A DNA stretch of 64,000 bases from a virus. This document shows, in pieces, positions 1 to 58,082 of this stretch; within the stretch, counting starts at the first letter, position 1; each line of letters starts with the position of its first letter. The DNA lies in UHGV virus genome UHGV-0168042. The stretch is one strand, 5' to 3'. Under the pieces are notes generated by a model. That model saw nothing but the letters and a program-made list of their open reading frames with translations, was not told the origin of the DNA and searched no databases. The position numbers and the translations under genes were made by a program.

Positions 1-225
1 TGATTGCCAGAGCCTGCTCCTGCTGTGGAGTTTTCGGTGCTGGCGCTGCAGACGAAAAGCCCGCCATAGCCTGGTTGATTGCCAGAGCCTGCTCCTGCTG
101 TGGGGTTTTCGGTGCTGGCGCTGCAGACGAAAAGCCCGCCATAGCCTGGCTGATTGCCAGAGCCTGCTCCTGCTGTGGAATTTTCGGAGTAGAAGGGGAT
201 ACTTGATCTCCCGGAAGTAGATCAA
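1..225. repeat. 75-bp tandem direct repeat, about 3 copies (starts 1, 76, 151), in-frame within the giant virion gene
   Basis: tgattgccagagcctgctcctgctgtgg(a/g)gttttcggtgctggcgctgcagacgaaaagcccgccatagcctgg repeated with 1-2 substitutions; period 75 = 25 codons; array may continue upstream of the window. Confidence 0.9.
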
Positions 226-3200: not shown

Positions 3201-3322
3201 CTTTTACCAGCGCGATCAACGTTTCCCAGCTTGAGCTTTGTATTTTTCTTCCAGGGCTTTTGACATATGGAGTGCTCGCCATTGCGGTAATTGTTCAACG
3301 TCGCTAACGGGCTGATATCCAT
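1..3322 (-). CDS. Large virion protein, 5' part only (runs off window start); Sit/tape-measure-like, with possible lytic-transglycosylase-like region and C-terminal 25-aa tandem repeats
   Basis: Manual minus-strand translation from ATG at 3322-3320 (MDISPLATLNNYRNGEH...) stays in the same frame as the repeat unit QAMAGFSSAAPAPKTPQQEQALAI at 1-225; no complete ORF in this frame is listed by the track, consistent with the stop lying outside the window. Absence of internal stops not fully verified. Confidence 0.55.
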   Translation of the reverse strand, partial: MDISPLATLNNYRNGEHSICQKPWKKNTKLKLGNVDRAGKREVILKENKDRIAIIDAIQEASTNELKALAEVKDAILSGASTITQQDERQGRVSNRLSRRRKDYEQSTSDSVRDVQTNPYKKRLPAKKERAPINQTVDRSIVATNTPESVRSVQSRQTIRKPDGFIPVAANSAPLEPQSPQSLKGPLRDSSGRFVSQKSNEDVARKKELQNARKADAKLQAGFLRKLGSIMGVDGNQSSSEESLTNAAGVGAGGPLWMAARGMYDITKEITGKAESLKEWVEKGKKETSTSKAISPVITYPAAVNSQKATSAKAFNNAVETKSAQAVEEQTKILQTNDNKIIDGLENVSDEVVKLRKSVSSGNKFGLSDLWRNRASRRNKINIGDQAGKNKRNKPKRKGRNLGKKALSVGEKAAAGTAAAGAGAGAAKTVKTKVSKAKDISTTSDASKGIAKETKNTAKAVKPAGVVAEEATIKTGETVAKKKTESVALKSAAKIGVKSAASTAARAIPIIGSLAMAGYDAIDGYTDTDAQKAAFGLSDDDAVSEQQKTAYATANVLDMEGLVSGATNLIGKGISALGFERAGEKLQNFDTGDIARGVNGAVDITKSVFGSLKDTFLSTDENTKQVKKAVEDGTKKTVDAIHSLGEQLQGGRNGEDGVGEHGYTSPTEFSAPANNTIAADLNIGGSNAKNRNYRNNNLGNLVFANQEGATLESPNAKGEQRFARFNTPEEGIRALANQVSSYYNGTSAAAGYQKLQTVSSIISKWAPPNENNTNQYIDNVSKYLGVSPNEKIDVSKPEVMTQLVRAIATKEGGNPAVNNEFIKNALGAFNTNTGRWEGQFSDETLARINKIQKENGGQLIARDSQYSVGRKVKYANGKSPAQPVLNAVPTATQQPIEVAQHAQAVKKPQKTGNQPQPINPENADVNTGSPSSLLERLIAINESGISGASNLFGGAATSLAGTSLDLVKDFALATSFGSISSLSEKAKGMDQALTEKISGLTGKSFGFKKASQVADIATAIQQKRTVNHDTEIIDLLPGDQVSPSTPKIPQQEQALAISQAMAGFSSAAPAPKTPQQEQALAINQAMAGFSSAAPAPKTPQQEQALAI

Positions 3323-3336
3323 ATAGAGTCAGGTTG

Positions 3337-4158
3337 TTAATAATGGTTAGCCATCCATTCAGATCTAATTGATGGGATAAACTCTCTATTGAGAAAGGGG
3401 ACGTACAGTGTGGTTGTCACATCTGCACCCTCCTTAGCGTTTTTGCAATGTTGCGGAGGCAGGATCAGTCGGCTTGTGCCTCTCTCAATAGACATTTTCA
3501 GGCCGTGGCGTAGGTCTTTTTGCATAAGCTGTATGCGAGCCACAAGCGGAGTAAATTCAGTTTCAAGCGCCATGCTTTCAATGATGTCAAAGCGTCGGTT
3601 AGCGGCCTGAGTGAAGTCCTCCGGATCGTCTTCAAGCGCCGTGCATAAAGCGAGTTCAGCAATTCGCATCCGTGCCACGCCAGCACTGTATTCGGGGCTT
3701 TTCATATCAGGAAGTGAAGCTCGCATTCGTTCAAGGAGTTCCGCGCCTTTCCCGGTTAATGGTTTAAGTATCCAGTCAGTTGGTACTCCATTTACTGGTA
3801 CGTTGGTTTTCACGTAAGGAGGTACAGTGAGTATTTCTACTGTTTGGGCCAGGTCGCTCAGGTTAATATCTGCATGATGCGTATTACCGCAGTGACTGCA
3901 CTCATAGGAGTAGGTCATTACTGCATCGGGGCGCGAATTAACAAATATCCACCAAAGAGCAGTTCTGCGATCCTGAACTGTCCAGTTAGCACTGTCGTTA
4001 ATTTCACCATCCTGCATAGAGTTAAGGTACTCTGTAGTAGTTGCCTCATCTTCTGCCGGGTTCAGGTCAGAATATTTCAGCGCATCCTTCACGGTAGGGG
4101 CGTGGAACTGAATTTCTGTCTCAGGACGGGAAGGCAATGGAAATTTTGGAATGTTCAA
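3337..4158 (-). CDS. Hypothetical phage virion/morphogenesis protein (273 aa)
   Basis: Complete ORF in track, co-oriented with and immediately upstream of the giant virion gene; no recognisable motif. Confidence 0.5.
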   Translation of the reverse strand: MNIPKFPLPSRPETEIQFHAPTVKDALKYSDLNPAEDEATTTEYLNSMQDGEINDSANWTVQDRRTALWWIFVNSRPDAVMTYSYECSHCGNTHHADINLSDLAQTVEILTVPPYVKTNVPVNGVPTDWILKPLTGKGAELLERMRASLPDMKSPEYSAGVARMRIAELALCTALEDDPEDFTQAANRRFDIIESMALETEFTPLVARIQLMQKDLRHGLKMSIERGTSRLILPPQHCKNAKEGADVTTTLYVPFLNREFIPSIRSEWMANHY

Positions 4159-4403
4159 TTATTCCTCCGAAAAGCAGGTATCTGTTCATTTTCCAGAGGA
4201 TAGGGAGTGTGTGATTTGCGATGGGGATTGAATGAAGATCTTTGCCGGTCGAGAAGCGATTATTGAGGGTGATTTTTACACCTTAAGTGACGCTACTCAC
4301 ATATCCACAGAGTATTTTTATAAACCTTTTTCCATTTTTAATCCTTTTTAGATCCTTTTTAGGCGTCGCTGGAGCCAGTAGTGGCGCGGGCTGTAGAGGA
4401 GTC

Positions 4404-4522
4404 TGGTGTAAGATTTGCCCTCAATTAGATACGATCGGTGTAAGATTTGCCCTCAGAAGGTGTAAGATTTGCCCTCAAAAGGTGTAGTAATTGCCCTCAA
4501 AGTGATGTAAAAATTGCCCTCA
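4404..4522. repeat. Iteron array, 5 direct repeats of about 19 bp (ggtgtaagatttgccctca and variants) at 22-32 bp spacing
   Basis: Copies start at 4404, 4436, 4458, 4480, 4504; directly upstream of the rep gene. Confidence 0.85.
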
Positions 4523-4546
4523 CCATTTGAAGGATCACACAGGGTT

Positions 4547-5302
4547 ATGAACAGAGCGGAATTAACAGCAAAAGCCGTCAGCCTGATTGAGTCAGCGACA
4601 CCTATTAGTCGTAGTTTGGCACAAGCCAATGAGATCACGGAGGCTGCTTATCACCTGACTCGCGACCAAAAGCGACTGTTGTTTATTGTGGTGGGAAGAC
4701 TTCGCTATGCTTCTAAGGATGGCGTTCTTGGTTCAGGTGCCTGTGAGTTGACGGTCAACGAATATGCAGAGATGTATAATTTGCCCTCTGCTGAAGCCAG
4801 CAAGGATATTCGTAAGGCCATTTCAGGTCTTAGCGAGAAGAAAGTTACGATATATAACCCTGATGAATCGACCGAATCAGAAGACAGTTATGAGTCTTAT
4901 CCTTGGATGATTAAGGATGCCTATTCACCACGGCGCGGGACTTACATTATTCATCTTAATCCATATCTCATGCCGTTTTTTACTCTGCTTGATAAGAGAT
5001 TCACAAGGCTGAATTTTACCGAAGTATCTCGCCTTACAAATCCTTATTCTATGCGGCTTTATGAGTCCTTATGCCAGTACAGGAAGGATGATGGAAGCGG
5101 CTTTGCCATACTTGGCGTCGAATGGATGCGGGAGCGTTATGGGTTACCAAAAAGCTATCAGCGGTATGCCGAATTTAAGAGAAGTTTTTTAACGAAGGCT
5201 GTAGCAGAGATTGAAAAAAATACAAAAATGAAAATAGTCTTCTCAGAGGTGACGGAAGGCGGCAAAGTTACCAGGATAAAATTTACCTATCAGCAGTCTT
5301 AA
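4547..5302 (+). CDS. repA: Iteron-binding plasmid replication initiator (Rep_3/RepA-like)
   Basis: Track ORF 4514-5302 starts at TTG; first ATG at 4547 (MNRAELTAK...). Protein resembles Rep_3 initiators (central NEYAEMYNLPSAEASKDIRKAISGL, C-terminal winged-helix-like region). Flanked on both sides by iterons. Confidence 0.8.
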   Translation: MNRAELTAKAVSLIESATPISRSLAQANEITEAAYHLTRDQKRLLFIVVGRLRYASKDGVLGSGACELTVNEYAEMYNLPSAEASKDIRKAISGLSEKKVTIYNPDESTESEDSYESYPWMIKDAYSPRRGTYIIHLNPYLMPFFTLLDKRFTRLNFTEVSRLTNPYSMRLYESLCQYRKDDGSGFAILGVEWMRERYGLPKSYQRYAEFKRSFLTKAVAEIEKNTKMKIVFSEVTEGGKVTRIKFTYQQS

Positions 5303-5593
5303 GGGCAATTTTTACACCCCTCTCAAGGTGTAGAATTTGCCCTTAACGATCGGCAATTGAGGGCAATTTTTACATCTTAATTGCATGTATCTTGTTATTG
5401 GCAAGTTGTGTTTTTATATAACATATTGATATGTAAGGATTATGTAAAAATCACCCTCAACCAATATCGTGCGTATCGTGCATTCTTATTGCGCTTTTTT
5501 ATTATCATTCACTGTGTTAACTGATTGATATTATTGAAATGTGTAAAGAATGCCTTCATTACAGATGGATTAATGATGTAAAAAATGCCCTCA
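5302..5593. repeat. Second iteron cluster downstream of rep, both orientations, with AT-rich stretch (candidate origin / copy-control locus)
   Basis: Reverse copies at 5302-5318 and 5358-5376 (exact reverse complement of iteron 5), forward copies at 5327-5345, 5442-5459, 5575-5593; AT-rich tgtttttatataacatattgatatg between. Confidence 0.7.
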
Positions 5594-5683
5594 AAATTGC
5601 GCTACCTTCCCTACCCGCTATCGTTGAGGGCGTGGGTGCTGACGGGAAATGAGCAACCCTCCAGCACACATAATTAAAGCTAT

Positions 5684-6391
5684 TCAGAATTTGATCACTC
5701 CACTCACAGCCCCCTTTAACGCACTTGTAGCCATGCCAGCGGCACCGTTGACCAAAGCAGAAACACCTGAGCCTGCGGATGTGTATTTCTGGAAAGTGAT
5801 TGGGTATGACAAGAACTCTGACACCTGATCACGTGAGCGAGTGATTTCCCCAAGTTGAGTAGGAAATACGCGCATTTCTTCTTCCAGTTCTTTTCCGCCG
5901 TCCTGAGTCACCCGGTAGACACGGATTTTCATCAGATATTCAGGAGGAAGGTTTATTGTTCCATCAGGATTTGTTACACGAGAACGACGCTCTTTGAACC
6001 AGTCCATGATCTTGCCATCTTCGGTATCCCTCACGGTCATAGTGACCGGTCCGGCGCTAACATAGGTTGGCTTGCTGAATTCTACGCTGCCGATCACCTT
6101 GCTTTCTGTCTCAATGTTTCCACTGCTGTAGGTGATATCCTTCACGAACATATCGAAGCCGTTCAGGCCATCCACTTCAACGGTCCACTGCCACCCCTGG
6201 GCGTAACGGATACGCATAGCGGCAGCAACAATATTTTTCCCGTAGGCAATATCGCTACTGTAATTCCCGCTTACCCCGCCGCCTGATATGGCTTTATCAA
6301 GAATGTCGCTAATGAGGTTGCTGGTGAATGATTTCGTGTTAAATGACAATGCGGTGGTCAACGTTCTACCAACGCTGCTGAAAATACTCAC
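5684..6391 (-). CDS. Hypothetical virion protein (235 aa)
   Basis: Complete ORF, tightly packed in the minus-strand structural gene run. Confidence 0.5.
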   Translation of the reverse strand: MSIFSSVGRTLTTALSFNTKSFTSNLISDILDKAISGGGVSGNYSSDIAYGKNIVAAAMRIRYAQGWQWTVEVDGLNGFDMFVKDITYSSGNIETESKVIGSVEFSKPTYVSAGPVTMTVRDTEDGKIMDWFKERRSRVTNPDGTINLPPEYLMKIRVYRVTQDGGKELEEEMRVFPTQLGEITRSRDQVSEFLSYPITFQKYTSAGSGVSALVNGAAGMATSALKGAVSGVIKF

Positions 6392-6406
6392 TCTGCGCCT
6401 CCAGCG

Positions 6407-6958
6407 TTAAAAAATGGTAGCCCCCGGAATAATGGCCCGGTTTGAGGACATTTTTTCCTCAATCTCCTGCACGCGGGCATATAGTGTGGCTTCATCGGGC
6501 AGATCGGAGTAGTCAAATTTCCCGTCGATGGACGCTCTACGCTGCCGGGCGACATTTCTTACATTGATAAGTGCCTCCAGATATTCCTCCAACATTCCAA
6601 TGATTGCAGGAGGCACTTGCCATTCATCTAGCTCTCTGTCGCGTAGATTAACCAGATACAGCATTCGAAAAGGCCAGCGTTCTGAACCTGTTAGCTCTAA
6701 TTCAATAAATCCGGATAATTCATCCGAATAGACCAACAAGCCGTTGTTGTCAGTAACATGAACCAGAGAGAGATAATCTTCTGGCCACGGGATTGCAGTA
6801 CCACCAGCTTTTTCAAGTTTTAACGTTTTCACTACCCCTGCCCTGTCCTGATACGTGGTCAGAGCTTTGATCAGGAAGGCTTTCAGCGTTTCTTCTTCAC
6901 GCACAAGCAGTGGATTAAATCGTGCTTTAACGCTTTCTAATAATTCGGTTGGTGTCAT
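6407..6958 (-). CDS. Hypothetical virion protein (183 aa)
   Basis: Complete ORF in structural run, 16 bp from neighbour. Confidence 0.5.
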   Translation of the reverse strand: MTPTELLESVKARFNPLLVREEETLKAFLIKALTTYQDRAGVVKTLKLEKAGGTAIPWPEDYLSLVHVTDNNGLLVYSDELSGFIELELTGSERWPFRMLYLVNLRDRELDEWQVPPAIIGMLEEYLEALINVRNVARQRRASIDGKFDYSDLPDEATLYARVQEIEEKMSSNRAIIPGATIF

Positions 6959-7010
6959 CGTACCTACAACTCAAATACAAGGAATTCCCGCCACAAGGGC
7001 GGGAAAGAGA

Positions 7011-7502
7011 TCACTCTACCCAGTTGTAAACAATACGCAGGGAAGGCTTAACGACCGCTGTTACGTCTTCGGATGAGAAGTCCACGGCGTCGGAATACAC
7101 TTTGCAATGAGAATATGTGCGGATCAGACCTTTATGGTTACCGCTATTCGATTCAGCCGCCGCCTGTAAGGTAATTTCCAGATATTCTTTTCCGTATACC
7201 ATCTGTTTTACAGCGGCGAGAACTGCGCCTTCGATAGTTTCCGCGCATGTAACCTGAAATTCACCAGAGTTGCGTAATGGTCCGTGCTGGTTGAATTTCA
7301 TGCCACCAGGGGCGTAATCCTCCACATCTTCACGTGTCATTTCTGGTAACTGAGCTGTACGAACTAGTACAGACAGATGTTCGTAACCCTTAATGGTCAT
7401 CCAATATTCAGAACCAATAAGTTTTTCGCCTGCAGCCAGGTTTTTATTAAACCGGGATTTTAGAAAGGCCATATCGGCTTTTGTATTTGCAAAACCGGAC
7501 AT
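7011..7502 (-). CDS. Hypothetical virion protein (163 aa), size and position compatible with a tail tube protein
   Basis: Complete ORF; tube assignment is positional only (downstream of a 552-aa sheath-sized gene). Confidence 0.4.
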   Translation of the reverse strand: MSGFANTKADMAFLKSRFNKNLAAGEKLIGSEYWMTIKGYEHLSVLVRTAQLPEMTREDVEDYAPGGMKFNQHGPLRNSGEFQVTCAETIEGAVLAAVKQMVYGKEYLEITLQAAAESNSGNHKGLIRTYSHCKVYSDAVDFSSEDVTAVVKPSLRIVYNWVE

Positions 7503-7510
7503 AAATACTC

Positions 7511-8101
7511 CTACACAAAAACAGATGAGATATTGCTACGGTTGATCGATGTGTTACCGCTGCATTGCAGGGTTACCGTGTTATGAGTGAAATAGCCTTC
7601 CGGTGTGCGCGGGGCGTCCAGTTGGTAACTCACGCTTTTGATAACAACGTCGGTAAGGGCTATGTTCCTACCTATGTTTAACGTTACTGTCTCCGGGCGA
7701 CGACCGAATGGCGCTACATTGTTCAGTTCCGGCGATTCCATCTTCAGCAATGCTGTAATGGCTGCGTTCACTTCAAGTTGCGCGTTCGTTGTCGCCATGA
7801 AATCAATTACCAGATTAAATTCAGGCGGTTGCTGACCTTCCCAAACAAGCATTGAGTTGAAGAGGGTTTTTGTTGTTACGCCGGTTGCGGTCTGAAGCGT
7901 ATCTGCAAGAGAGCCAGCCGCAGCGCTAATACCGCCAAGCAAACCTCCTACTGACTGGTTTTCAAATGGTGATTGCCACATTGATGACAGTTCTGCGGTA
8001 GATCCTTCACCGATATAACCGACGACCATATCCTCTGAAGAGAGGATATAAACCTTCATTAACGGACTTATTCCGTCAGGCATTATCGCGCCGCAAATCA
8101 A
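7511..8101 (-). CDS. Hypothetical virion protein (196 aa)
   Basis: Complete ORF in structural run. Confidence 0.5.
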   Translation of the reverse strand: MICGAIMPDGISPLMKVYILSSEDMVVGYIGEGSTAELSSMWQSPFENQSVGGLLGGISAAAGSLADTLQTATGVTTKTLFNSMLVWEGQQPPEFNLVIDFMATTNAQLEVNAAITALLKMESPELNNVAPFGRRPETVTLNIGRNIALTDVVIKSVSYQLDAPRTPEGYFTHNTVTLQCSGNTSINRSNISSVFV

Positions 8102-8150
8102 ACGCTATTTCTCCCAGGTAGAGGCCACCTTTGCAGACGGCCTATGTCAC

Positions 8151-8891
8151 TTACAAACCGCGTTTTTTGCGAATGCGCATTGATTTTTTGCGGTTGATAT
8201 TCGCTACGGATGTATGTGCTTTGCGGCGTGCTTTTTTCAGCGCCTGTTTTTGCAATGACGTCATGCGGCGAGGACGCGGGCGTTTACGGATGATGGTAAC
8301 CTTGCCATCACGAACCACTTTTTTACGTACCGCTTCCAGCATTGCGCTATCACCACCAGCAACGGTGTAAATGGCAATAGCTGTTTCCATCATGTCGGTG
8401 TCGCTTTCGGAAAGAGCGTCATAAACACGTTCGGCAGCTGAGTCATCTTCATCGTCGATCATTTCGGTTACATCGTCCTGATCAGCGCCAAGCGCAACAG
8501 CTGCATCAGCAAGAGCTGCGAGAGCATCGTTATAAGCATCGATTTGCTCATCGGTGAAATCGGTGTCTTCATCGATATCAGCCAGGCCAGCCATAGTGAT
8601 TGCTAATGCATCAAATGAGTCAGCCTCCGGATCACCATCTTCAACCCAACCAGCAATCATGGAAGCTGCCAGGCTGCGCATATCACCTTGTGCACGGGAT
8701 TCAACCGCTTCCATCATCGCGGTTTCAATGTCGTCTTTGGGCTTTGGTTGAGTGTCCTTTCCTTTCTGTCCTGCGCTTTCCAGCATGGCGTTATCATTAT
8801 TGTCCTGAGTGGATTTATCACCGCTTTCAAAGCAGCCAGAACCGAAAATCGCACGCATAAACGGATCAGCAGTATAATTTTTCATATTCAA
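8151..8891 (-). CDS. Hypothetical protein (246 aa) with strongly acidic body and very basic C-terminal tail (RKRPRPRR...RKKRGL)
   Basis: Composition read from translation; could be scaffold-like or an internal DNA-binding protein. Confidence 0.45.
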   Translation of the reverse strand: MNMKNYTADPFMRAIFGSGCFESGDKSTQDNNDNAMLESAGQKGKDTQPKPKDDIETAMMEAVESRAQGDMRSLAASMIAGWVEDGDPEADSFDALAITMAGLADIDEDTDFTDEQIDAYNDALAALADAAVALGADQDDVTEMIDDEDDSAAERVYDALSESDTDMMETAIAIYTVAGGDSAMLEAVRKKVVRDGKVTIIRKRPRPRRMTSLQKQALKKARRKAHTSVANINRKKSMRIRKKRGL

Positions 8892-8928
8892 ACCTCTCTC
8901 CCCCGCATCATTTAGCGGGGGTTATAAA

Positions 8929-10587
8929 TCAGCGCATCAGAATTGGCTTACCGACGATTCGGCGAGCTGTACCGGTCGGACAAACAGACCAGGCCACTTC
9001 CCACAGATCGATGTCCTTTTGGACAACCTGAACAACATATGGATCTTCACCCTGGGACTTGTCACGTGGAGTAACCAGCGCACCGGCTGCAACGTAACGG
9101 TCAAGCAATTCAGTCATTGCTTTCATTAGCGCTTCTTTGGTAATGCCATCCGGTTCGTGCTTAATCGCCTGAGCTACTTCATAGAAATCTCTGGCGATGG
9201 CGTTCATCAAGGAAGACACATGCTGGAATCGCAGATAGTTGTTTTTGCTGTAAGTTGTTAAAGAGTCGTCAATGTAAACGGACCCGTCAGCAGCAACTGA
9301 AACTGGATTAATGCGCGCAAGAACGAACGCTTCACGATCAACTGCACCGATATTTGGAATTCGGGCAATGTTCTGTCGATCAATAATCGCGCGTGATATA
9401 CCTGCCGGTGCGTAATGCCAACCACCAACATCCGGTACCAGCGCCACTCCTTTTGCCTTCGCTACGAATGCGTCGCAGCTAATGCCATAGACGACATTCA
9501 TTCCAGTGAAAGTATCTCGGCAGGAGAGCGGGAAGTAGTAACGGCTTGGTTGATGTGAGCCGCCAAAACTATGGCTTTTCGCTTCTGAAATAGCGTTTTC
9601 AGGTGTCTGGTTGCCCTTCAGGTCATAGAACATGTCTACGCGAACATCTTCAGCCAGCTTTTTGATTGCGGCTAAGGCGGATGCGTCATAACAACCCAAT
9701 GACAGCAATGCGGTGTAATTAACCTCTGAAGCTTCGAGAACCTTTAATGCTTCCAGATAGTCTGCAGCGGCAATTTCGGACAGATTTCCATCAGTACCAC
9801 CTTCAAAAGCCACATCCTCAAAAATGAGTTGAGCAGCGGATGCTTCTGCATTATCTGCCAGTACGGCACCAATGCGAGTGGACTGGCTTTCAAGCAGTGT
9901 CGGAATCCATGCTGGTTGGCCCATGTCGTTGGTGCCTTCTGGATTGAAAGACACTTGGTGGCTTTCCAGCACCTCAATGGACCCATCGGTTTTTTTTTCT
10001 TTCAGCGTCAGCGTAAAGAGTTCGCTTTCTTCATCATCGCGAGTTAGTGATAACGTGCGATTTTGAGATGCATCACCATCTTTGATGAAGAATAATGCCT
10101 TCTCTCCACCTTTAATCTGGGGCGTCTCTTTGGGTGTGAAGGTCACTGATTGAGTCGTTGCAGTTGGAGCAACACCAACGCTTAATGTGTCACCTGGATT
10201 TGCTGTGGTTTCAGTAGGTTCAACGGAAAGTTCTTTGCTCGCCTTTGCCGCTTTTGCTTTGCCCACAACGGAAACAGAAATACCCGGCACCTTCATGTCT
10301 TTAGCGCAAACTCGAACGACATATCCAGAGCCGCCTTTTACTGCACGCTCCACGTGGCGATATGGTTCAAATGCCGCGCCCAGGCGAGGGTGAATCGGTG
10401 AACCTAATACGCTTTGATAAGTCGTATCGTCAACTTTCAGTACCTTACCCGGTGCGCCACGACGCGATATTACAAGCCCAGCAAAGACGGATGCGCCACC
10501 GCTGGTATTGGTGAGGGTAGCGTCAGCATTTACTGACATTACAGCAACGCCAGCTGCCTGCCCTACCGAAAAACTAATCTTATTCAT
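8929..10587 (-). CDS. Large virion protein (552 aa); candidate tail sheath or capsid protein
   Basis: Long ORF, good RBS context; assignment by size and gene order only. Confidence 0.5.
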   Translation of the reverse strand: MNKISFSVGQAAGVAVMSVNADATLTNTSGGASVFAGLVISRRGAPGKVLKVDDTTYQSVLGSPIHPRLGAAFEPYRHVERAVKGGSGYVVRVCAKDMKVPGISVSVVGKAKAAKASKELSVEPTETTANPGDTLSVGVAPTATTQSVTFTPKETPQIKGGEKALFFIKDGDASQNRTLSLTRDDEESELFTLTLKEKKTDGSIEVLESHQVSFNPEGTNDMGQPAWIPTLLESQSTRIGAVLADNAEASAAQLIFEDVAFEGGTDGNLSEIAAADYLEALKVLEASEVNYTALLSLGCYDASALAAIKKLAEDVRVDMFYDLKGNQTPENAISEAKSHSFGGSHQPSRYYFPLSCRDTFTGMNVVYGISCDAFVAKAKGVALVPDVGGWHYAPAGISRAIIDRQNIARIPNIGAVDREAFVLARINPVSVAADGSVYIDDSLTTYSKNNYLRFQHVSSLMNAIARDFYEVAQAIKHEPDGITKEALMKAMTELLDRYVAAGALVTPRDKSQGEDPYVVQVVQKDIDLWEVAWSVCPTGTARRIVGKPILMR

Positions 10588-11080: not shown

Positions 11081-12778
11081 TCACTTTTTTTCGTTAACCT
11101 TGCCTGTCAGCATGTCGATAGCACCTTCTTTGGCACGAGTCAGACGCAGGCGGGTGAAGTAGTTTTCACCGTTGCGAGGATGTACTTCGTTGATGGCACT
11201 GCCCCAGAGAGTGGTACGGTTAACGAGAGACGGATTGGTTTCGTGAACGTAAGGGATTGCTGGGACTGCATCACCAGCAATCAGACCGGCTTTACCGATG
11301 CCTTCGCCACGCCCATAGAAGAAGATGTCATCCAGCCCGAAGTCATATCCCTGTGCCAGGAATTGCTCACAGACAGGTTGCGGCACTTCGTAAATACGAA
11401 TCGTGCCAAACAGGGTGCCGATGTACTGTACATACGGCGACTGAACGTAACCTGGTGCGATCTGGAAGTGCTGTGGAGGCAGAGAGCGCAGGAAGTTCGC
11501 GGCGTCACTACCAGCAAAGCCGCCACGAATACCCGTTGTCAGGGTACGATTTGCCATTTCTTGAGACAGAGCGTTTACTGCGTGACGCAGGAGGCCGACC
11601 CAGGACTCATAGTTTTGAGCTTCCGGCAGAGCCACATCAAATTCACGACCATAAACGGTATGGAATACCAGGGTGCGCAGACGCATGATGTCGGTTTCAT
11701 GGGAGATCCAGTTACGCATCGCGGAGAACTGAAGTGCCGCTAATTCAAGGCCGTGCTCACGGCTTAAATCGGATGCGGACATTACCGTGTGTTCGGAAGC
11801 AAGTACGTACTGGGACGGACGAACTTCGTACTTACGCATAGCCTGGTTGATCACCGGAATCAGGCTTGGATTGCGCTCGATGTTAATTTCGACCTGAACA
11901 GCAATTTCAGTACCTACTGGCGGAGCCTGGGTAAATGTAATGTCAATGACACCAGTGTCATAGGCAACTTTGGCAGTCGCTGAGAAAGTATTACCTTTGC
12001 TGTCTTTAGCATTGAAATAAAGGTTGCCATCGCCGTCGTCAACTTTGGACGGTTTGCGGTTGATCAGCAGTTTGTTATAACCAGCGCGAAGCGGGCAGGA
12101 TTGTCCCTCAAATTTTTGGATGTTGAACTGGAAGGTTTTGGTGCTGCCATCCCCTTTAGTGGAAAGGGCATACAGGCGCTTCATTTGAGAATAAACACCA
12201 GCTGACTGCATATTCAGTTCGTCACCTTGGTTGAAGGTGCCGAATTTTGTGCCTGCTACGTTGACCAGTTCATAAATATTTGACTCGTCACGATCACAAG
12301 GAACAAAAGTACAGGCATCACTGGTAGCAGCGCCCAGAGAAGCAGGCAGAATTAGAGCAGCATATTGAGCAACTTTCATTACGCCGTCAGAGCTACGCAT
12401 TGATTGCGCGACAGACTCAAACATTGCCTTACCCGTGCCTTCATGGGTATCACTGGCACATTCAGTCATCAGGCGTTCAAGAGCCATGTGTGCGTTCGCC
12501 AGGATGTCACTTGCCGGGTAATGACCATGTTGACGTTTATACTCATGCAGAGACATAGCCCACCCACCAGTGATCTGACGAGCGACCTCTGGATTTACGC
12601 CTTCAAACATAGGCACTTTCTGGATTGCTTTATCCAGGTTTTCCATCATTACTGCCTGGTCAGCAATCATGTTGCCTGCTGCATCGGTGGTCGGATCGAC
12701 GGTCATAGCCATGACGCTTGCCGCCCGATTCATAATCTCGCGCTCGCGATCACGAGCTGGCTGAATGTTTTTATTCAC
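11081..12778 (-). CDS. Large virion protein (565 aa); candidate major head or portal-class protein
   Basis: Long ORF at the head of the minus-strand structural operon; preceded by an operator-like motif region at 12877-12926. Confidence 0.5.
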   Translation of the reverse strand: MNKNIQPARDREREIMNRAASVMAMTVDPTTDAAGNMIADQAVMMENLDKAIQKVPMFEGVNPEVARQITGGWAMSLHEYKRQHGHYPASDILANAHMALERLMTECASDTHEGTGKAMFESVAQSMRSSDGVMKVAQYAALILPASLGAATSDACTFVPCDRDESNIYELVNVAGTKFGTFNQGDELNMQSAGVYSQMKRLYALSTKGDGSTKTFQFNIQKFEGQSCPLRAGYNKLLINRKPSKVDDGDGNLYFNAKDSKGNTFSATAKVAYDTGVIDITFTQAPPVGTEIAVQVEINIERNPSLIPVINQAMRKYEVRPSQYVLASEHTVMSASDLSREHGLELAALQFSAMRNWISHETDIMRLRTLVFHTVYGREFDVALPEAQNYESWVGLLRHAVNALSQEMANRTLTTGIRGGFAGSDAANFLRSLPPQHFQIAPGYVQSPYVQYIGTLFGTIRIYEVPQPVCEQFLAQGYDFGLDDIFFYGRGEGIGKAGLIAGDAVPAIPYVHETNPSLVNRTTLWGSAINEVHPRNGENYFTRLRLTRAKEGAIDMLTGKVNEKK

Positions 12779-51338: not shown

Positions 51339-51833
51339 TTATAACTTTTCGTACTGAAGCGGTGTACGCTTGATTTCAACGCGGTCTTCCGATGTACTAC
51401 CAAAGCCACCAGCACCTCGCTCTGTTTCATCGAGTTCATCAACTTCTACCAGCGATACCGGTTCAACACGCTCAAAAATGCCTTGCATGACAGCCATTCC
51501 AGGCTTGAGGCAAATGCCTTCCCCGCCGGGATCAGCAATCAGTTTTGCCATGATTTCACCGCGATAATCGGAGTCGATAATTCCTACGCAGTTAGCCAGG
51601 CGAGTATGTTTTTTGCAGCCCAATCCGGATCGTGGATAGAGTTTCAGACACCAGCCGGGCGGGATCTCCATAGCCAGTCCGGTATACACCCACCAGCTTG
51701 AGGAAATTGCCCCATTGCTATCGACGCATGGTTTTATTTCAACAGCCTCAAAATCCATCGCCGCCGATCCGGAGGTGGCATAAGCTGGAAGTTTTGCTGC
51801 CGGATGTAGGCGTTTCACTTTTACGTAAATCAT
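51339..51833 (-). CDS. dut: dUTPase
   Basis: dUTPase motifs GIIDSDYRGEI and RGAGGFGSTS. Confidence 0.85.
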   Translation of the reverse strand: MIYVKVKRLHPAAKLPAYATSGSAAMDFEAVEIKPCVDSNGAISSSWWVYTGLAMEIPPGWCLKLYPRSGLGCKKHTRLANCVGIIDSDYRGEIMAKLIADPGGEGICLKPGMAVMQGIFERVEPVSLVEVDELDETERGAGGFGSTSEDRVEIKRTPLQYEKL

Positions 51834-52306
51834 TGTTTTTTAGCTCTCTGCGTGAAGGTGTAAACCCGACGTTTGATATGTGGAACGGTAGGAACAGGAA
51901 GACAGGAACTTTCAATAACTCCTTGCTCCTCCAGCGATCGCACCGCCCGCAAGAACTGCGACGTGTCGCCGCCAAACTGGCGGGCATAGGTGCTGCCGTT
52001 ATGAAGTATTTGAGCTATTACCCGAGCTTTTGTCTGGCTGTCACGATATGCGAATAGCCGCACGGCCTCTTCTGGCGCAATCGCTAACTGATAGCCTTTC
52101 CCGGCACGGTGTCGAATGAATCCATGCGCCAGTAGGTTTTTGAGTTCGTTACGAGTGCGAACAGATCCGTAATCCAGGAAGTGTGGATTGATAACGACTG
52201 GCTTAAACCATTCCGTAGGTGCTTTAGCTAATAGAGCTAACAGCTTCCCGGACAATTCTGGATAGGAAGACGGGTAACAATTCAGAGATGGGTAATAAGT
52301 TTTCAC
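51830..52306 (-). CDS. Hypothetical protein (158 aa)
   Basis: Complete ORF, 4-nt overlaps with neighbours. Confidence 0.45.
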   Translation of the reverse strand: MKTYYPSLNCYPSSYPELSGKLLALLAKAPTEWFKPVVINPHFLDYGSVRTRNELKNLLAHGFIRHRAGKGYQLAIAPEEAVRLFAYRDSQTKARVIAQILHNGSTYARQFGGDTSQFLRAVRSLEEQGVIESSCLPVPTVPHIKRRVYTFTQRAKKQ

Positions 52307-52647
52307 CGACGCCCCCTTGCCGGATATCGACCTGCATTAGTATCCGGTGCAATAAAGCCGGTAGTGGGGCGAGTGAAAGCGAGATTAATCTTCTCGACCA
52401 TAGTGCGATAATTTTCCTGATAGTGGGCCAGGAGTTTTTCGGCGGCAATGATGGTTACTTTCCGGACGTAGCTTTCTGCTTCCTCCAGATTTCGCCAGTT
52501 TTTTTCGAGGGTAAACACAGGGACGGCCTCAAGCCCGGTCATGATGCCGAACACAACGACAGCATGACTGTTCTTAACACCAGCGGCGAAGGTTACGGTG
52601 TAACCATCTACCTTGAAGCGTCTTGATTCCGTGATTTGACTCTGCAA
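52303..52647 (-). CDS. Hypothetical protein (114 aa)
   Basis: Operator-like motif (52693-52715) lies about 45 nt upstream of its ATG. Confidence 0.45.
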   Translation of the reverse strand: MQSQITESRRFKVDGYTVTFAAGVKNSHAVVVFGIMTGLEAVPVFTLEKNWRNLEEAESYVRKVTIIAAEKLLAHYQENYRTMVEKINLAFTRPTTGFIAPDTNAGRYPARGRR

Positions 52648-52720: not shown

Positions 52721-53749
52721 TTACGAATCCATCAGGCGGCTATTAGCCCCCACAGACACGCCGCCACGGCGAAGATACCGCATAAGTGTTTCCGGTTTCT
52801 TCCATGTTCCTTCCTGCATGATCTCCACCATAGACACCTGCTTTTCAGCCATATCAATAGCGGCCCCGACGCGTGCACTATGCCCGGTCCACGTCCGGTA
52901 TCTTCCTTTGTTTGGCGTAGCATCTCTTTTATTCAGCAACACCCAGGCGTCGCTGAATATTTTCTCCATTGCAGGTGCAGTAAGGGGCGTTGTCGTGATC
53001 CTGGCCTTATTGCTACGGTGTATCGGCGGGAACAGCACTGCGTCAGGATGTTCGCGAAGCCCGGAAACATCCAGCCAGTCATTCAGCACAGCGGTAGTGC
53101 GACGGGAAAGCACCTTATCAAGCCCGGCGGCGGTCGTTATTGTCTTCGTGTGTGAAATATGTAGCGTGACAGTGTCACCTGTTTGGTCCAGATCTCCTAC
53201 ACGAATACGCGAGATTTCCGACATACGCATCAGCGTATTGTATGCAACAAAGAGAAAAGCCCGGTTGCGCAGGTCCACCAGCCGTTCTGACCTGGACAAC
53301 AGGACGTCGAGCAGTTTCAGATCGTCCCACCGCAGCGGTATAGCCTGGCCTGTTCGTTCGCCTTTTTCCGTTGCCGCTTCACGCCGGATGCGCCGCATAG
53401 CCAGAGAAACACTTTTATCATCCGAAAGTGGCGGAAGGCCACAATGCGAAAGCAGCATGTTAAGCATGGCGTAGTGCTTATCAATGGTGGTCGAAGCCAG
53501 ATCAGCATCATGCAGCTGGAGAAAATACTCGCGGGCCATCTCTGGTGAGATCGGGAACCAGGCGAGCTGGCGAGCGTGACACCATCTCGCCCAGGAGTGA
53601 AACACTAACCGGAGATCGCGCAAAGTATTCGGCGCGTAAGCCCCCCGGTCATTCATGAACCGCATAAAGTTTTCTGCGGCCTCCTGGTACTCTTTGCCAA
53701 TGTTGCGCAGAAAACCACCGGAGCTGCCAGAGATAATTAATTCACTCAT
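52721..53749 (-). CDS. cre: Cre-like tyrosine site-specific recombinase
   Basis: Collinear similarity to P1 Cre as recalled (WFPISPEMAREYFLQL, NRAFLFVAYNTLMRMSEISRIRV, WTGHSARVGAAIDMA, catalytic Y in LMRYL). Confidence 0.85.
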   Translation of the reverse strand: MSELIISGSSGGFLRNIGKEYQEAAENFMRFMNDRGAYAPNTLRDLRLVFHSWARWCHARQLAWFPISPEMAREYFLQLHDADLASTTIDKHYAMLNMLLSHCGLPPLSDDKSVSLAMRRIRREAATEKGERTGQAIPLRWDDLKLLDVLLSRSERLVDLRNRAFLFVAYNTLMRMSEISRIRVGDLDQTGDTVTLHISHTKTITTAAGLDKVLSRRTTAVLNDWLDVSGLREHPDAVLFPPIHRSNKARITTTPLTAPAMEKIFSDAWVLLNKRDATPNKGRYRTWTGHSARVGAAIDMAEKQVSMVEIMQEGTWKKPETLMRYLRRGGVSVGANSRLMDS

Positions 53750-53901
53750 GAAACTATTTCGCCTCTATATACAGATGACGCTACGCGAAAAATATAAAAA
53801 TGACAGGGTAGCTATAAGTTAATTTTCAAAATACAAGCCTTTGATTCGAGGCGCGTATTTTCATTGATGTCAACACTGATCATCTACCCATGATTATAGC
53901 C

Positions 53902-53933
53902 TAACTTTAAATAATGCCAATTATTTAAAGTTA
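53902..53933. other. lox-like recombination site: 14-bp perfect inverted repeats TAACTTTAAATAAT / ATTATTTAAAGTTA around a 4-bp core (or 12-bp arms around ATGCCAAT)
   Basis: Located about 150 bp upstream of the cre-like start; arm resembles the loxP arm ATAACTTCGTATA (10 of 13). Confidence 0.6.
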
Positions 53934-54114
53934 TAAAATGGCGATTTTTTTTAATCCATCACAGATTGATTCTGACCAGTAACACGTTGCCTTCATGGTC
54001 TTTAATTTGCGAAGTGTGGTTTATACAGTTGGTTTTCTAAAATTGATGACAAAAAATCACAGCTCTATCCTTTACTCACTCTGTTATTCGACATAAATTT
54101 GTCATAGTAATTTT

Positions 54115-54143: not shown

Positions 54144-55181
54144 ATGAGTAAGAAGTCGATCGAGAAAGAGTACAAACGGTTCCTGCAAACCGCTGAACGG
54201 TGGAAAGAGCTGGTGGTCGCAAACTCTGTTTTCCATGATACCAGTTATGCTGGCGAGGAATTCCGCCATGTTGCATTAACGCATGACCAAAACATATTAG
54301 AAGAAGCTGAAAAATGTCTTGCTGAATGGAAAGCCTTCGTTGACATGTGTCGCGATGCCGACGGCAAAGCGTCGAACATTGTTGAGTCTGTATATTCTCC
54401 GATCCCATTCATCATTGAGGACACCAATCAAAGCACGCATGTTGTTGTGCAAAGCGCTACAACAACACGTACATTTACACGTGAGCAATTGCTCAAAAAA
54501 TACGACAAAATCATAAAGAAAAGCCTGAAAAATAGGGTTTTTTCTCAAATCGTAGGTGCTCTTGAAGAAGAACAGCGCTTCTTTGAAGCTGAGCCTGAAG
54601 GCGAGATCTACCGGGCGCGTAAAGAGGCATATACAGATGTTGTGCTGACAACAAACATCGAAGGCAGCAATGCCCTTTCTCGCTTTAGAGTTGGCGCACA
54701 TGGCGCATTGGTTTTCGCAAGACTACCGAAGACAACGATCCCCGTTGTCAATAATGTTGGTGAACGCCGGAGCATTACAATTTATTCTGGCGTCGAATCG
54801 GTACCTTGCAGCCTTCTCGGCGATTTTAACTTATATCGTGTTCGTGACCTGGAAAAACACCAGCCAAGCTACGTTGCGAAGTCGTACATCTTAAGGAACA
54901 TCGATATTCGCAACGAAAACCTTAAGCAGAAATCCGCTAAGATGCTGGAGGATGCCGATCCGGCCATTCGCCATATCATTGAACGTAAGATTCGTACATC
55001 GCGTGAAGCAATGGCAAGGCTGGATAAAATGGATCTGGAATTGTTAGACGTAATGATGGCCTCTGGAGACGACCTGACCGGCATCAAACTGAATGAAGCG
55101 CGTAAAAAATACGGCAAAGCAATCGAAGAACGTTACGGATACACATTCCCCCAAACGCAGCACGCCGCAAAGCTCTGGTAA
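54144..55181 (+). CDS. Hypothetical protein (345 aa); occupies the position held by the c1 repressor in P1
   Basis: Lies between the lox-like site and pacB with an operator-like motif in its leader; no sequence-level support for repressor function. Confidence 0.45.
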   Translation: MSKKSIEKEYKRFLQTAERWKELVVANSVFHDTSYAGEEFRHVALTHDQNILEEAEKCLAEWKAFVDMCRDADGKASNIVESVYSPIPFIIEDTNQSTHVVVQSATTTRTFTREQLLKKYDKIIKKSLKNRVFSQIVGALEEEQRFFEAEPEGEIYRARKEAYTDVVLTTNIEGSNALSRFRVGAHGALVFARLPKTTIPVVNNVGERRSITIYSGVESVPCSLLGDFNLYRVRDLEKHQPSYVAKSYILRNIDIRNENLKQKSAKMLEDADPAIRHIIERKIRTSREAMARLDKMDLELLDVMMASGDDLTGIKLNEARKKYGKAIEERYGYTFPQTQHAAKLW

Positions 55182-55209: not shown

Positions 55210-56718
55210 TTATATATCCAGATCCGGCATTTCGATATCCGCCAGAACCTGATCTCGGAAAGTTGCCATTTCGGCACCAATATCTTCATTAGCAGGCACA
55301 TAGTCCACCAGCATAGTGAAGCAGTAGGTATCCCATCGGTCAGGCGATTTGATGTTTAGCTTTTGCCGCATGTGCTCTTTGCGCATCATCGCCATTTTCC
55401 CCTCTTCATTCAGTAAAAAGGGGATTTTTGACGCTTGCTCTGCCGTTTTAGGGTCACTGTCTATCCGCATACGCCCTGACTTTATGGCATCACGCGCCAT
55501 AATATTTGCGTAGGCACGCTGATTAACAAATCGCTCCCTGTCTTTGTTCGCAAACATGGGTTTTCCCCACCGAATACGTACCGGGTTCGCACCACGACGC
55601 ACCAACTGCGCACACGTATCAGAACCAAAACCATCAGCATCAACCGCGATTGTTATATTCGGGTATTTTTCCGGCGTACATTCGTTATATATGAAGTCAG
55701 CAAAGGCCAATGGGTCCATAGTGCCAGGCATCTCCATTACCTTAAAGTTAACAACGCGCCGCTTATCCCTGTGACCTGATACCTTGCAGATGTTGAGGAC
55801 CGACTTATCTCGCCCATTACCAACGTCAGCCGTTGCCACCCATCCCCAGTTTTTCTCCAACAACACCTTGCGGCGAGCAGCGCGATCGCATTCATCACGA
55901 CCAAGCAAATAGCCGTTAATTTCTCGTGGGAACTGACCAAGCACCTTGACCATGTACTCAATAGAATCGCGCCCGCCATATTCCAGAAGCTTCTCCTTGA
56001 TGAATTGTGGTGTGACGAACGGTGATTCTTCCGAGTTAAGAACAATTGCTGTCCAGATCCCTTTCGGGTTGCCTGGGGTTTTTGCTCGAGAATGGTGCGA
56101 ATCGTAGAAATAACCACTTGGCCTTGTTGGCTGGGATAGCATCAACATCCGGTTATCTTCTTCAGTAAGAGCACCGGTCATTACGCCGATCGCCTTATCA
56201 GATATACCAGATGCTTCATCCAGAATTAGAAGCAAATGTGCCGCGTGTTCCCCCGCCAGCGCTTCTTCGTTGCCGAGTCGATAACCTTTGCAGAGAACTT
56301 CCCAAATCCCCTTACGGGAGCGCTCATAAAACATGGTGTCAGAGAGGACAAAATAGGTCTGCAACCACCCATGACGCTTAACTGCATTCGCCCAATACTG
56401 TTTAACGTATTTGAATACGCCTGTTTTTACCTGGCCTATCTTGTTAGCAACAATGATGACACGGGCATCGGGGAACAGGATCATAAAAATCAACAGCAAC
56501 ATCGCGGTAAGGGACGACTTCCCCGTTCCGTGTCCGGACGTGACGGTAGTCCTACTCCCCGTTTCCTGTACGGACTGAATGATCTGCTGCTGCTGGTGGG
56601 AGGGGAACATCCCAAAAATATCGACAACAGCCTGGGTAAAGTTGTAGCGGTATTTGATTACCATATCGCGCCAGCGTGGATCTCTGGTGACGCATTTAAC
56701 CTTGCGCCCGCCAGCCAT
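55210..56718 (-). CDS. pacB: Terminase large subunit (PacB-like)
   Basis: Walker A GHGTGKSS, Walker B LLILDEAS, C-terminal nuclease-like region; directly downstream of pacA-like gene. Confidence 0.75.
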   Translation of the reverse strand: MAGGRKVKCVTRDPRWRDMVIKYRYNFTQAVVDIFGMFPSHQQQQIIQSVQETGSRTTVTSGHGTGKSSLTAMLLLIFMILFPDARVIIVANKIGQVKTGVFKYVKQYWANAVKRHGWLQTYFVLSDTMFYERSRKGIWEVLCKGYRLGNEEALAGEHAAHLLLILDEASGISDKAIGVMTGALTEEDNRMLMLSQPTRPSGYFYDSHHSRAKTPGNPKGIWTAIVLNSEESPFVTPQFIKEKLLEYGGRDSIEYMVKVLGQFPREINGYLLGRDECDRAARRKVLLEKNWGWVATADVGNGRDKSVLNICKVSGHRDKRRVVNFKVMEMPGTMDPLAFADFIYNECTPEKYPNITIAVDADGFGSDTCAQLVRRGANPVRIRWGKPMFANKDRERFVNQRAYANIMARDAIKSGRMRIDSDPKTAEQASKIPFLLNEEGKMAMMRKEHMRQKLNIKSPDRWDTYCFTMLVDYVPANEDIGAEMATFRDQVLADIEMPDLDI

Positions 56719-58082
56719 TAATCATCCTCCGGCGGTTCTATCGCGATATCATCATCTCCGGCGTCATACCCTGCATCAGATGCATCATAATCACCGTAAA
56801 TTTCAGCCGTTGCCGAAGGGTCAATATCCAGCTCTTCGTCGTTGGCCTCGAATTCTCCAGCTTTACGCTCGCCATTGCGGTCGTAATCTCCGCAACCCAA
56901 TTCTTCAACAATGGTTGCCACATCCGCCCGGCGCTCTGCCAGCCATAGCGGATGGTTAGCCTGAAGCGTTGCAAACTCCCTTGCCTCTTTGTCCAGCTGT
57001 TCATCATCAACATCATTGACGTCAGAAACAGGTGGTTCGAGAAGAGTGATAGCTTTCGCCGCGCGCGCCGCGAGGATAGCCGGGACGCTGACACCCTGGC
57101 GCTCGATGTATTCAGCAACACCGATATCATCCAGTTCCTCGCGCTCACGCATACGTATAGCGGCGGCGATAACTCTGGCTGCGCGTGCGTCAGCGCCAAT
57201 GCGATATTCAATCTCTTTGCCACGCTGTTCGGCCTGTAGGCGTGCTAATTCGAGTTTTTCTCTGGCCTCAGCCTCTTTGAATGCTTGCTGGCGAGCGCTC
57301 TGACGAAGCTTTTCATCCCCCTGTCGCAGCTTTTGTTCGGACTGATATATAGCTGCCAACCTACTGATAAAATCATTCATGTAGTAGGCCGCGTCACTGA
57401 TTAGACCGAGAAGGCGCTGCCCAGGGTGCATTCCTTCTGGCTCTTTATCGCCCAAGGTGTCTATTTCCGCCTGTAGACGTTCGGCCTCCTGATCAACAAT
57501 GCTTTGATACTGAAGTGCGCGCTCTTGCGCCATTTGAATTGCTAACCGCAGGTGTTCTTCTGCGCCGTTCTTCATCATATCGCGAGCCACATTCGTAGTT
57601 GGCAATGTGGCACGCTGCACAGCACCGTCAGGGATCATTGCAGAAGATCCCTCAATTTTTGGGGCACTTTTATCTTCTTCGGGGATCATTTTCGCCATTT
57701 TTTCGCGCAATGATCTCCTGACGGATTCTTTTATCTCATTGTTATTATTTAAATTATTTTCATGATCCGAAGTTTTCTTTCTCGGCATACTTCGGAAAGA
57801 ACCTGCGCCCTGCGAATTGTCAATTTCTGTAAATTTTGTTTTTTCTGCACCCTCTTCCTGCTTTTTTGTTGCTCTTCCTGCCCGTTTTTTTTCAGGTGAT
57901 TTGGTGCTTTTTTTTGTTGTCTTTACCTGCGACCGCACCTCATTTTTTTTCATATTGAGATGCTTTCTGGCTGTATTGAAGCTAAGGCCATGCTCCTCAC
58001 AGTATTCCTTTACAGTGATCCCTTTTTCTTCACGCAACGCTATAAAGCGGGCGCGGTGCTCCTCCCAATTAACCAGACTCAT
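56718..58082 (-). CDS. pacA: Terminase small subunit (PacA-like) with N-terminal HTH
   Basis: N-terminal HTH (GITVKEYCEEHGLSFNTARKHL), acidic C-terminus; contains a GATC-rich cluster at 57630-57770. Confidence 0.55.
   Translation of the reverse strand: MSLVNWEEHRARFIALREEKGITVKEYCEEHGLSFNTARKHLNMKKNEVRSQVKTTKKSTKSPEKKRAGRATKKQEEGAEKTKFTEIDNSQGAGSFRSMPRKKTSDHENNLNNNNEIKESVRRSLREKMAKMIPEEDKSAPKIEGSSAMIPDGAVQRATLPTTNVARDMMKNGAEEHLRLAIQMAQERALQYQSIVDQEAERLQAEIDTLGDKEPEGMHPGQRLLGLISDAAYYMNDFISRLAAIYQSEQKLRQGDEKLRQSARQQAFKEAEAREKLELARLQAEQRGKEIEYRIGADARAARVIAAAIRMREREELDDIGVAEYIERQGVSVPAILAARAAKAITLLEPPVSDVNDVDDEQLDKEAREFATLQANHPLWLAERRADVATIVEELGCGDYDRNGERKAGEFEANDEELDIDPSATAEIYGDYDASDAGYDAGDDDIAIEPPEDD

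Follow-up and report, generated by a model that had tools for sequence, protein, structure and literature searches.

The 64-kb window (the whole stretch of DNA analysed, 64,000 nucleotides) was found to carry a gene for a Cre-family tyrosine recombinase and, upstream of it, a 32-bp inverted repeat that is the canonical rox site. Because the protein, the site, its flanks, the gene order and the colinearity of the whole window match the characterised system of Escherichia phage D6, these are almost certainly the Dre/rox site-specific recombination module of a D6-type (P1 subgroup 2) phage-plasmid. The relevant features are listed in Table 1.

Table 1. Features of the dre-rox region, with positions in the window
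Feature	Position	Strand	Description
dut	51339-51833	-	downstream of dre; order and size as D6 dut
orf3	51830-52306	-	downstream of dre; order and size as D6 orf3
orf2	52303-52647	-	downstream of dre; order and size as D6 orf2
dre	52721-53749	-	342-aa Cre-family tyrosine recombinase; ATG start; Dre allele with Q35R
candidate sigma-70 promoter toward dre	53893-53920	-	TTGGCA-16-TATAAT; 11/12 consensus match
candidate promoter -10	53898-53893	-	TATAAT; just outside rox
candidate promoter -35	53920-53915	-	TTGGCA; rox spacer plus one base from each arm
rox, Dre recombination site	53902-53933	.	32 bp; 14-4-14 perfect inverted repeat; identical to annotated and published rox
rox arm, dre-proximal	53902-53915		TAACTTTAAATAAT; 14 nt
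rox spacer	53916-53919		GCCA; 4 bp, asymmetric
rox arm, c1-proximal	53920-53933		ATTATTTAAAGTTA; 14 nt
c1, phage repressor homologue	54144-55181	+	ORF; colinear D6 gene annotated c1, 'phage repressor protein'; divergent from dre, across rox
pacB, terminase (pacase) subunit	55210-56718	-	ORF; colinear D6 gene annotated pacB
pacA, terminase (pacase) subunit	56718-58082	-	ORF; colinear D6 gene annotated pacA

The protein encoded by dre was aligned with D6 Dre (GenBank accession number AAV84949.1), and 341 of 342 residues were identical with no gaps, the sole difference being Q35R. The closest solved structures were chains of P1 Cre (E=1e-69, alignment full length), with which the protein shares 42% identity over 322 aa. 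The features of the Cre subfamily of tyrosine recombinases were both found, namely a match to Pfam PF00589 (Phage_integrase) above threshold (62.5 bits versus a cut-off of 27.1) and a complete R-K-H-R-W-Y active-site set, made up of R175, K202, H290, R293, W316 and Y325. The numbering follows PMC4777119, in which R175, H290, R293, W316 and Y325 are named as the catalytic residues of Dre, and K202 aligns with K201 of Cre.

Arginine at position 35 was not seen in the Dre of any relative compared, as all seven annotated records have Q35, and no 342/342 match to the protein was found among IMG/VR contigs, where the best match was 341/342. Residue 35 aligns with R34 of P1 Cre, and arginine is therefore tolerated there in an active family member. 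In Cre-loxP structures the equivalent residue presumably lies in the N-terminal helix A, which contacts other subunits and not the bases, thus a change in specificity is not expected. Q35R is predicted to be neutral, with the specificity of the recombinase unchanged. Because the protein departs from the reference Dre at one residue, and in a form absent from the relatives, the module in the window could also be read as a degenerate remnant without activity, its function lost through Q35R or through regulatory changes. However, the gene encodes a full-length protein with every catalytic residue in place, the homologous residue of Cre is itself an arginine, rox is intact, and the element around the module is colinear with D6, a viable phage, making a loss of function very unlikely.

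The two arms of the inverted repeat, TAACTTTAAATAAT and ATTATTTAAAGTTA, are 100% complementary over 14 nt. The site is identical, base for base, to the misc_recomb feature 'region of crossover (rox) site for Dre recombinase' in the D6 sequence (GenBank accession number AY753669) and to the rox annotated in a further D6 record (GenBank accession number MF356679), and it matches exactly the wild-type rox printed in PMC4777119 (5'-TAACTTTAAATAATGCCAATTATTTAAAGTTA-3'). A variant rox of altered specificity was also considered and was dropped, as there are 0 differences between the site in the window and wild-type rox. The distance from the ATG of dre to rox, which lies upstream of the gene, is exactly 152 bp. 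A preliminary description of this DNA had placed a core-containing palindrome some 150 bp upstream of a cre-like gene, and both the position and the palindromic structure are borne out. The length had been given there as both 32 bp and 34 bp, and it is the shorter that defines the site. The likeness of the arms to the ATAACTT start of loxP arms holds in part, since TAACTT is present in both, while the leading A (position 53934) occurs on the c1 side only and the flanking base on the dre side is a C.

When up to 3 mismatches were allowed, the rox pattern occurred once in the 64-kb window and not at all in 100 dinucleotide-preserving shuffles. Neither a second rox or pseudo-rox (up to 3 mismatches) nor a loxP site, even with 3 mismatches, was found in the window. 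The preliminary description had allowed that the true site might map elsewhere, and this is countered by the lack of a second copy or near-copy. A related reading is that the palindrome, located where dre and c1 diverge, is a mere transcription terminator or an operator for the C1 repressor, with recombination taking place at some other site. The palindrome is indeed an AT-rich hairpin with a run of T after it (TAAAATGGCGATTTTTTTT), and the genes on its two sides are divergent; the same arms are found in a metagenome-assembled Clostridia genome in a terminator-like setting flanked by A6 and T6, with no dre nearby. However, a terminator scan made no call at rox, the window offers no second copy or near-copy at which recombination could occur instead, and the identical minimal 32-bp rox on its own supports recombination by Dre in E. 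coli (PMC3553980). The published recombination assays on an identical 32-bp sequence refute a palindrome that is only a terminator or operator, leaving this reading barely credible, and the site is taken to be the rox of a Dre/rox module.

The genetic context of dre and rox was examined, and the order dut-orf3-orf2-dre-rox-c1-pacB-pacA and the sizes of the genes were found to be those of the immC region of D6. When annotated phage records were searched with the region by megablast, Escherichia phage D6 alone was returned, with matches to the features 'dre: tyrosine recombinase' and the rox site. Over its full length the window follows the D6 sequence MF356679 colinearly, from 41597 to 91159, over the origin of the record and then from 1 to 9784, with 95.7-98.2% identity across the colinear stretches. 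The origin of the D6 record is placed in rox, which corresponds to 53902-53933 in the window. Nucleotide divergence from D6 is ~4% over the dre-rox region. In the 394-bp intergenic region between dre and c1 the identity to D6 is 98%, with rox and its immediate flanks unchanged and the few intergenic substitutions all outside rox. The plasmid with the closest match to the intergenic region is NZ_CP066033, and both D6 and NZ_CP066033 have been classed as P1 subgroup 2 phage-plasmids (PMC10879196). These matches place the window among the D6-type (P1 subgroup 2) phage-plasmids of Enterobacteriaceae, with its map origin at rox.

Three tRNA genes (Met-CAT, Thr-TGT and Arg-TCT) are located on the minus strand at 59999-62066 in the window, in the part that is colinear with 1-9784 of D6. 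Parts of the window between 20000 and 64000 also match hundreds of records of Stx-converting and other lambdoid phages at 90-95% identity, and the segment at 40219-49816 matches P1, SJ46 and RCS47 (pmgS, pphA region) at 92-95%. These matches point to mosaic segments common beyond the D6 group.

Searches of plasmid and genome collections revealed the dre-rox region in more than 100 enterobacterial phage-plasmids. It was detected in 144 PLSDB plasmids, with 83 of the 144 at 95-99% identity, and these are mostly non-mobilizable replicons of ~90-95 kb from E. coli, Salmonella and Shigella. It was also detected in 124 of 5426 complete E. coli genomes, where it is nearly always plasmid-borne, and the best wider matches to the window are E. 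coli plasmids of ~93-95 kb.

The module shares with that of D6 not only the near-identical protein and the identical site but also the 152-bp spacing, the orientation, the neighbouring genes and the colinearity of the remainder of the window; it differs in the Q35R substitution, the ~4% nucleotide divergence and the few substitutions outside rox. Similarities to Cre/loxP of phage P1 are also clear, as both include a Cre-family tyrosine recombinase with the same catalytic residues and a simple two-arm site that works without accessory factors, and both occupy the same niche at the map origin, by c1 and pacAB. The TAACTT motif in the outer arms of loxP is the same one found in both rox arms. However, loxP is a 13-8-13 site of 34 bp whereas rox is a 14-4-14 site of 32 bp, and the two match at only 21-22 of 34 positions. 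The arrangement between site and gene is also different, as in P1 the cra gene and three annotated cre promoters, none overlapping lox, lie in the ~420 bp between lox and cre, whereas the interval in the window is 152 bp long with no cra, and a promoter-like element overlaps rox. With 42% identity to Cre, 14-4-14 geometry and no loxP, the module in the window is not a member of Cre/loxP proper. The Vika/vox, VCre/VloxP, SCre/SloxP, Nigri/nox and Panto/pox pairs have the same type of architecture and are likewise used as mutually orthogonal tools (PMC3553980), but these Cre-like pairs are far more distant in sequence, and their sites are other 34-bp sequences. Vika, for example, is 23% identical to Dre (PMC3553980).

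The conservation of rox was examined by scanning IMG/VR for both rox arms with any spacer, which identified 23 contigs. A dre gene is present in the locus in 19 of them, and in 19/19 the distance and orientation of rox relative to dre are the same. The scripted gap to the site was 153-154 in these contigs, and the same measure gives 153 for the 152-bp interval in the window. The oriented spacer is GCCA in 20 of the 23. In an alignment of 25 distinct sequences, which included relatives with a Dre only 70-94% identical, 28 of the 32 rox positions were invariant, and conservation was low at 10-40 bp to the dre side of rox and over the whole of the c1 side. Alignment with the sites of P1-like phage-plasmids had been proposed in the preliminary description. 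The window itself has the canonical rox. In this comparison, rox appears as a conserved island in diverging intergenic DNA, a pattern that a functional binding site for a protein would be expected to leave.

A small number of natural variants of the site were observed. A T-to-C change in one arm (ATTATCTAAAGTTA) occurs in loci L003 (GenBank accession number CP116989; locus coordinates 1453-1484) and L005 (E. fergusonii, GenBank accession number CP137859; locus coordinates 1447-1478). The spacer is ACTA in L006 (E. coli D9 plasmid B, GenBank accession number CP010154; locus coordinates 1447-1478), beside a Dre that is identical at 306 of 342 positions, and GCTA in L018 (locus coordinates 3706-3737), where the arms are identical and the adjacent Dre homologue shares 69.6% identity. 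A CCCC spacer was seen in one contig (L025; locus coordinates 12405-12436). Judging from their sequences, it is possible that these arm and spacer variants are heterospecific sites, though the CCCC spacer may alternatively be a sequencing error. In plasmid pSa1423-90k (L002; GenBank accession number NZ_MK356557.1; locus coordinates 1400-1520), a rox arm with small indels (ATTATTTGGAAGTTA) was found, and dre is annotated as fragmented hypothetical proteins. The indels are most likely an assembly or sequencing error and not a genuine variant.

An exact-arm scan of species-representative genomes returned only the Clostridia hairpin mentioned above, which is located in the chromosome of an uncultured Clostridia MAG (L012; GenBank accession number OZ007016.1; locus coordinates 6381-6412) and comprises both 14-nt rox arms separated by a TAAT loop. 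No dre homologue was found near these arms in the 8-kb locus. The hairpin was not accepted as a rox site and is probably a chance AT-rich palindrome resembling a bidirectional terminator.

A candidate sigma-70 promoter directed toward dre was found to overlap rox (Table 1), with the 16 nt between the -35 and -10 hexamers taken up by the dre-proximal rox arm plus 3 nt. It is the sole match of at least 11/12 in the 64-kb window, and when the 501-bp region was resampled with a Markov model, 2.6% of the resamples contained a match of this quality. The promoter is present in six of seven diverged relatives tested, and the -10 hexamer, which falls outside the 32-bp site, is invariant in 25 of 25 distinct relatives amid adjoining sequence that varies. 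On rox, Dre would occupy the stretch separating the two hexamers, and it is therefore reasonable to hypothesise that dre is autorepressed. In addition to its part in recombination, rox would then be the operator of a dre promoter, where bound Dre would keep RNA polymerase out and repress the production of more Dre. None of the three cre promoters annotated in P1 falls inside lox, so a promoter embedded in rox would be specific to D6-type elements.

However, the evidence for an operator consists of a consensus match and conservation, and the total number of promoter-like sites in the region (at least 9/12) is not above the shuffled expectation, with 1 found versus 2.0 expected. The conservation of the -35 is explicable simply by its membership of rox, and the -35 match is lost in L006, the plasmid with the ACTA spacer. 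A regulatory role for rox is thus a tentative proposal and one that is rather unlikely on the present evidence. A literature search, which did not extend to the original D6 Dre paper, returned no relevant report of a rox promoter or of Dre autoregulation.

A second, weaker match directed toward dre (TTGACA-18-TCGAAT, 10/12) is located on the minus strand at 53844-53878, and its -35, which reads TGTCAA on the plus strand (53868-53873), is largely kept in relatives. The dre-c1 intergenic region has a single GATC (Dam) site, at 53878, reminiscent of the cre promoters of P1, which are regulated by Dam.

Recombination by D6 Dre at the 32-bp, 14-4-14 rox has been reported (PMC4777119), both excision and integration by Dre/rox have been obtained in E. 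coli (PMC3553980, PMC12331466, PMC4777119), and Dre/rox and Cre/loxP do not cross-react, such that their use as orthogonal tools is established (PMC3553980, PMC12331466). From the behaviour of D6 Dre on the identical site, the R35 allele in the window would be expected to recombine rox with rox and not to act on loxP. In the mechanism expected from the match to the characterised system, two Dre monomers bind the two 14-bp arms of a rox, and two such sites synapse in a Dre tetramer. Strand exchange then proceeds via a Holliday-junction intermediate in and around the asymmetric GCCA spacer, which sets the direction of rox, and accessory proteins are not needed. The positions at which Dre cleaves rox have not yet been mapped definitively (PMC4777119), and those in the window are presumed positions.

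In P1, Cre/lox performs both the cyclisation of terminally redundant DNA and the resolution of dimers. By analogy with P1, and given that the D6 annotation reads 'rox site (lox in P1)', the module probably has the same two roles in vivo. It would most likely circularise the terminally redundant phage DNA after infection, and it would most likely also resolve dimers of the plasmid-prophage to monomers, allowing faithful partition.

The preliminary description had proposed a Cre-family recombinase with a cognate lox-like site of a specificity unlike that of Cre/loxP, and this is upheld by the identity of the pair as Dre/rox and by the heterospecificity reported in the literature (PMC3553980, PMC12331466). 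Its suggestion that the site serves cyclisation and dimer resolution is probably right as well. The novelty claimed for both does not stand, given a protein that is D6 Dre at all but one residue and a site that is the annotated and published wild-type rox. The suggestion of a new orthogonal recombination tool likewise falls away, as Dre/rox is already that tool (PMC3553980, PMC12331466). The pair is therefore real but already known, and recombination and cross-reaction experiments of the type proposed were published long ago.

The Dre/rox system of phage D6 was reportedly described by Sauer and McDermott in 2004 (Nucleic Acids Res 32:6086). The pair has been in standard use as a Cre-orthogonal tool for genome engineering since that year, and it is now routine in bacteria and mammalian cells as well as in zebrafish and mice.

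The value of the result is that the window can be annotated as a D6-type phage-plasmid with its map origin at rox, and it carries little weight as a discovery. What novelty remains is limited to two minor leads, a possible self-repressed dre promoter embedded in rox, an operator role that may be undescribed, and the natural rox arm and spacer variants in relatives. The combined proposal, that in D6-type elements rox is the operator of the main dre promoter through which Dre represses its own synthesis and that the ACTA, GCTA and possibly CCCC spacers are ready-made heterospecific rox sites, is speculative and on balance doubtful. Rox and its spacing from dre are strictly conserved across natural isolates, and the variants could be screened as heterospecific sites. 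If the first part of the proposal is true, Dre would repress itself via its own recombination site, an arrangement that is not annotated for P1 Cre/loxP.
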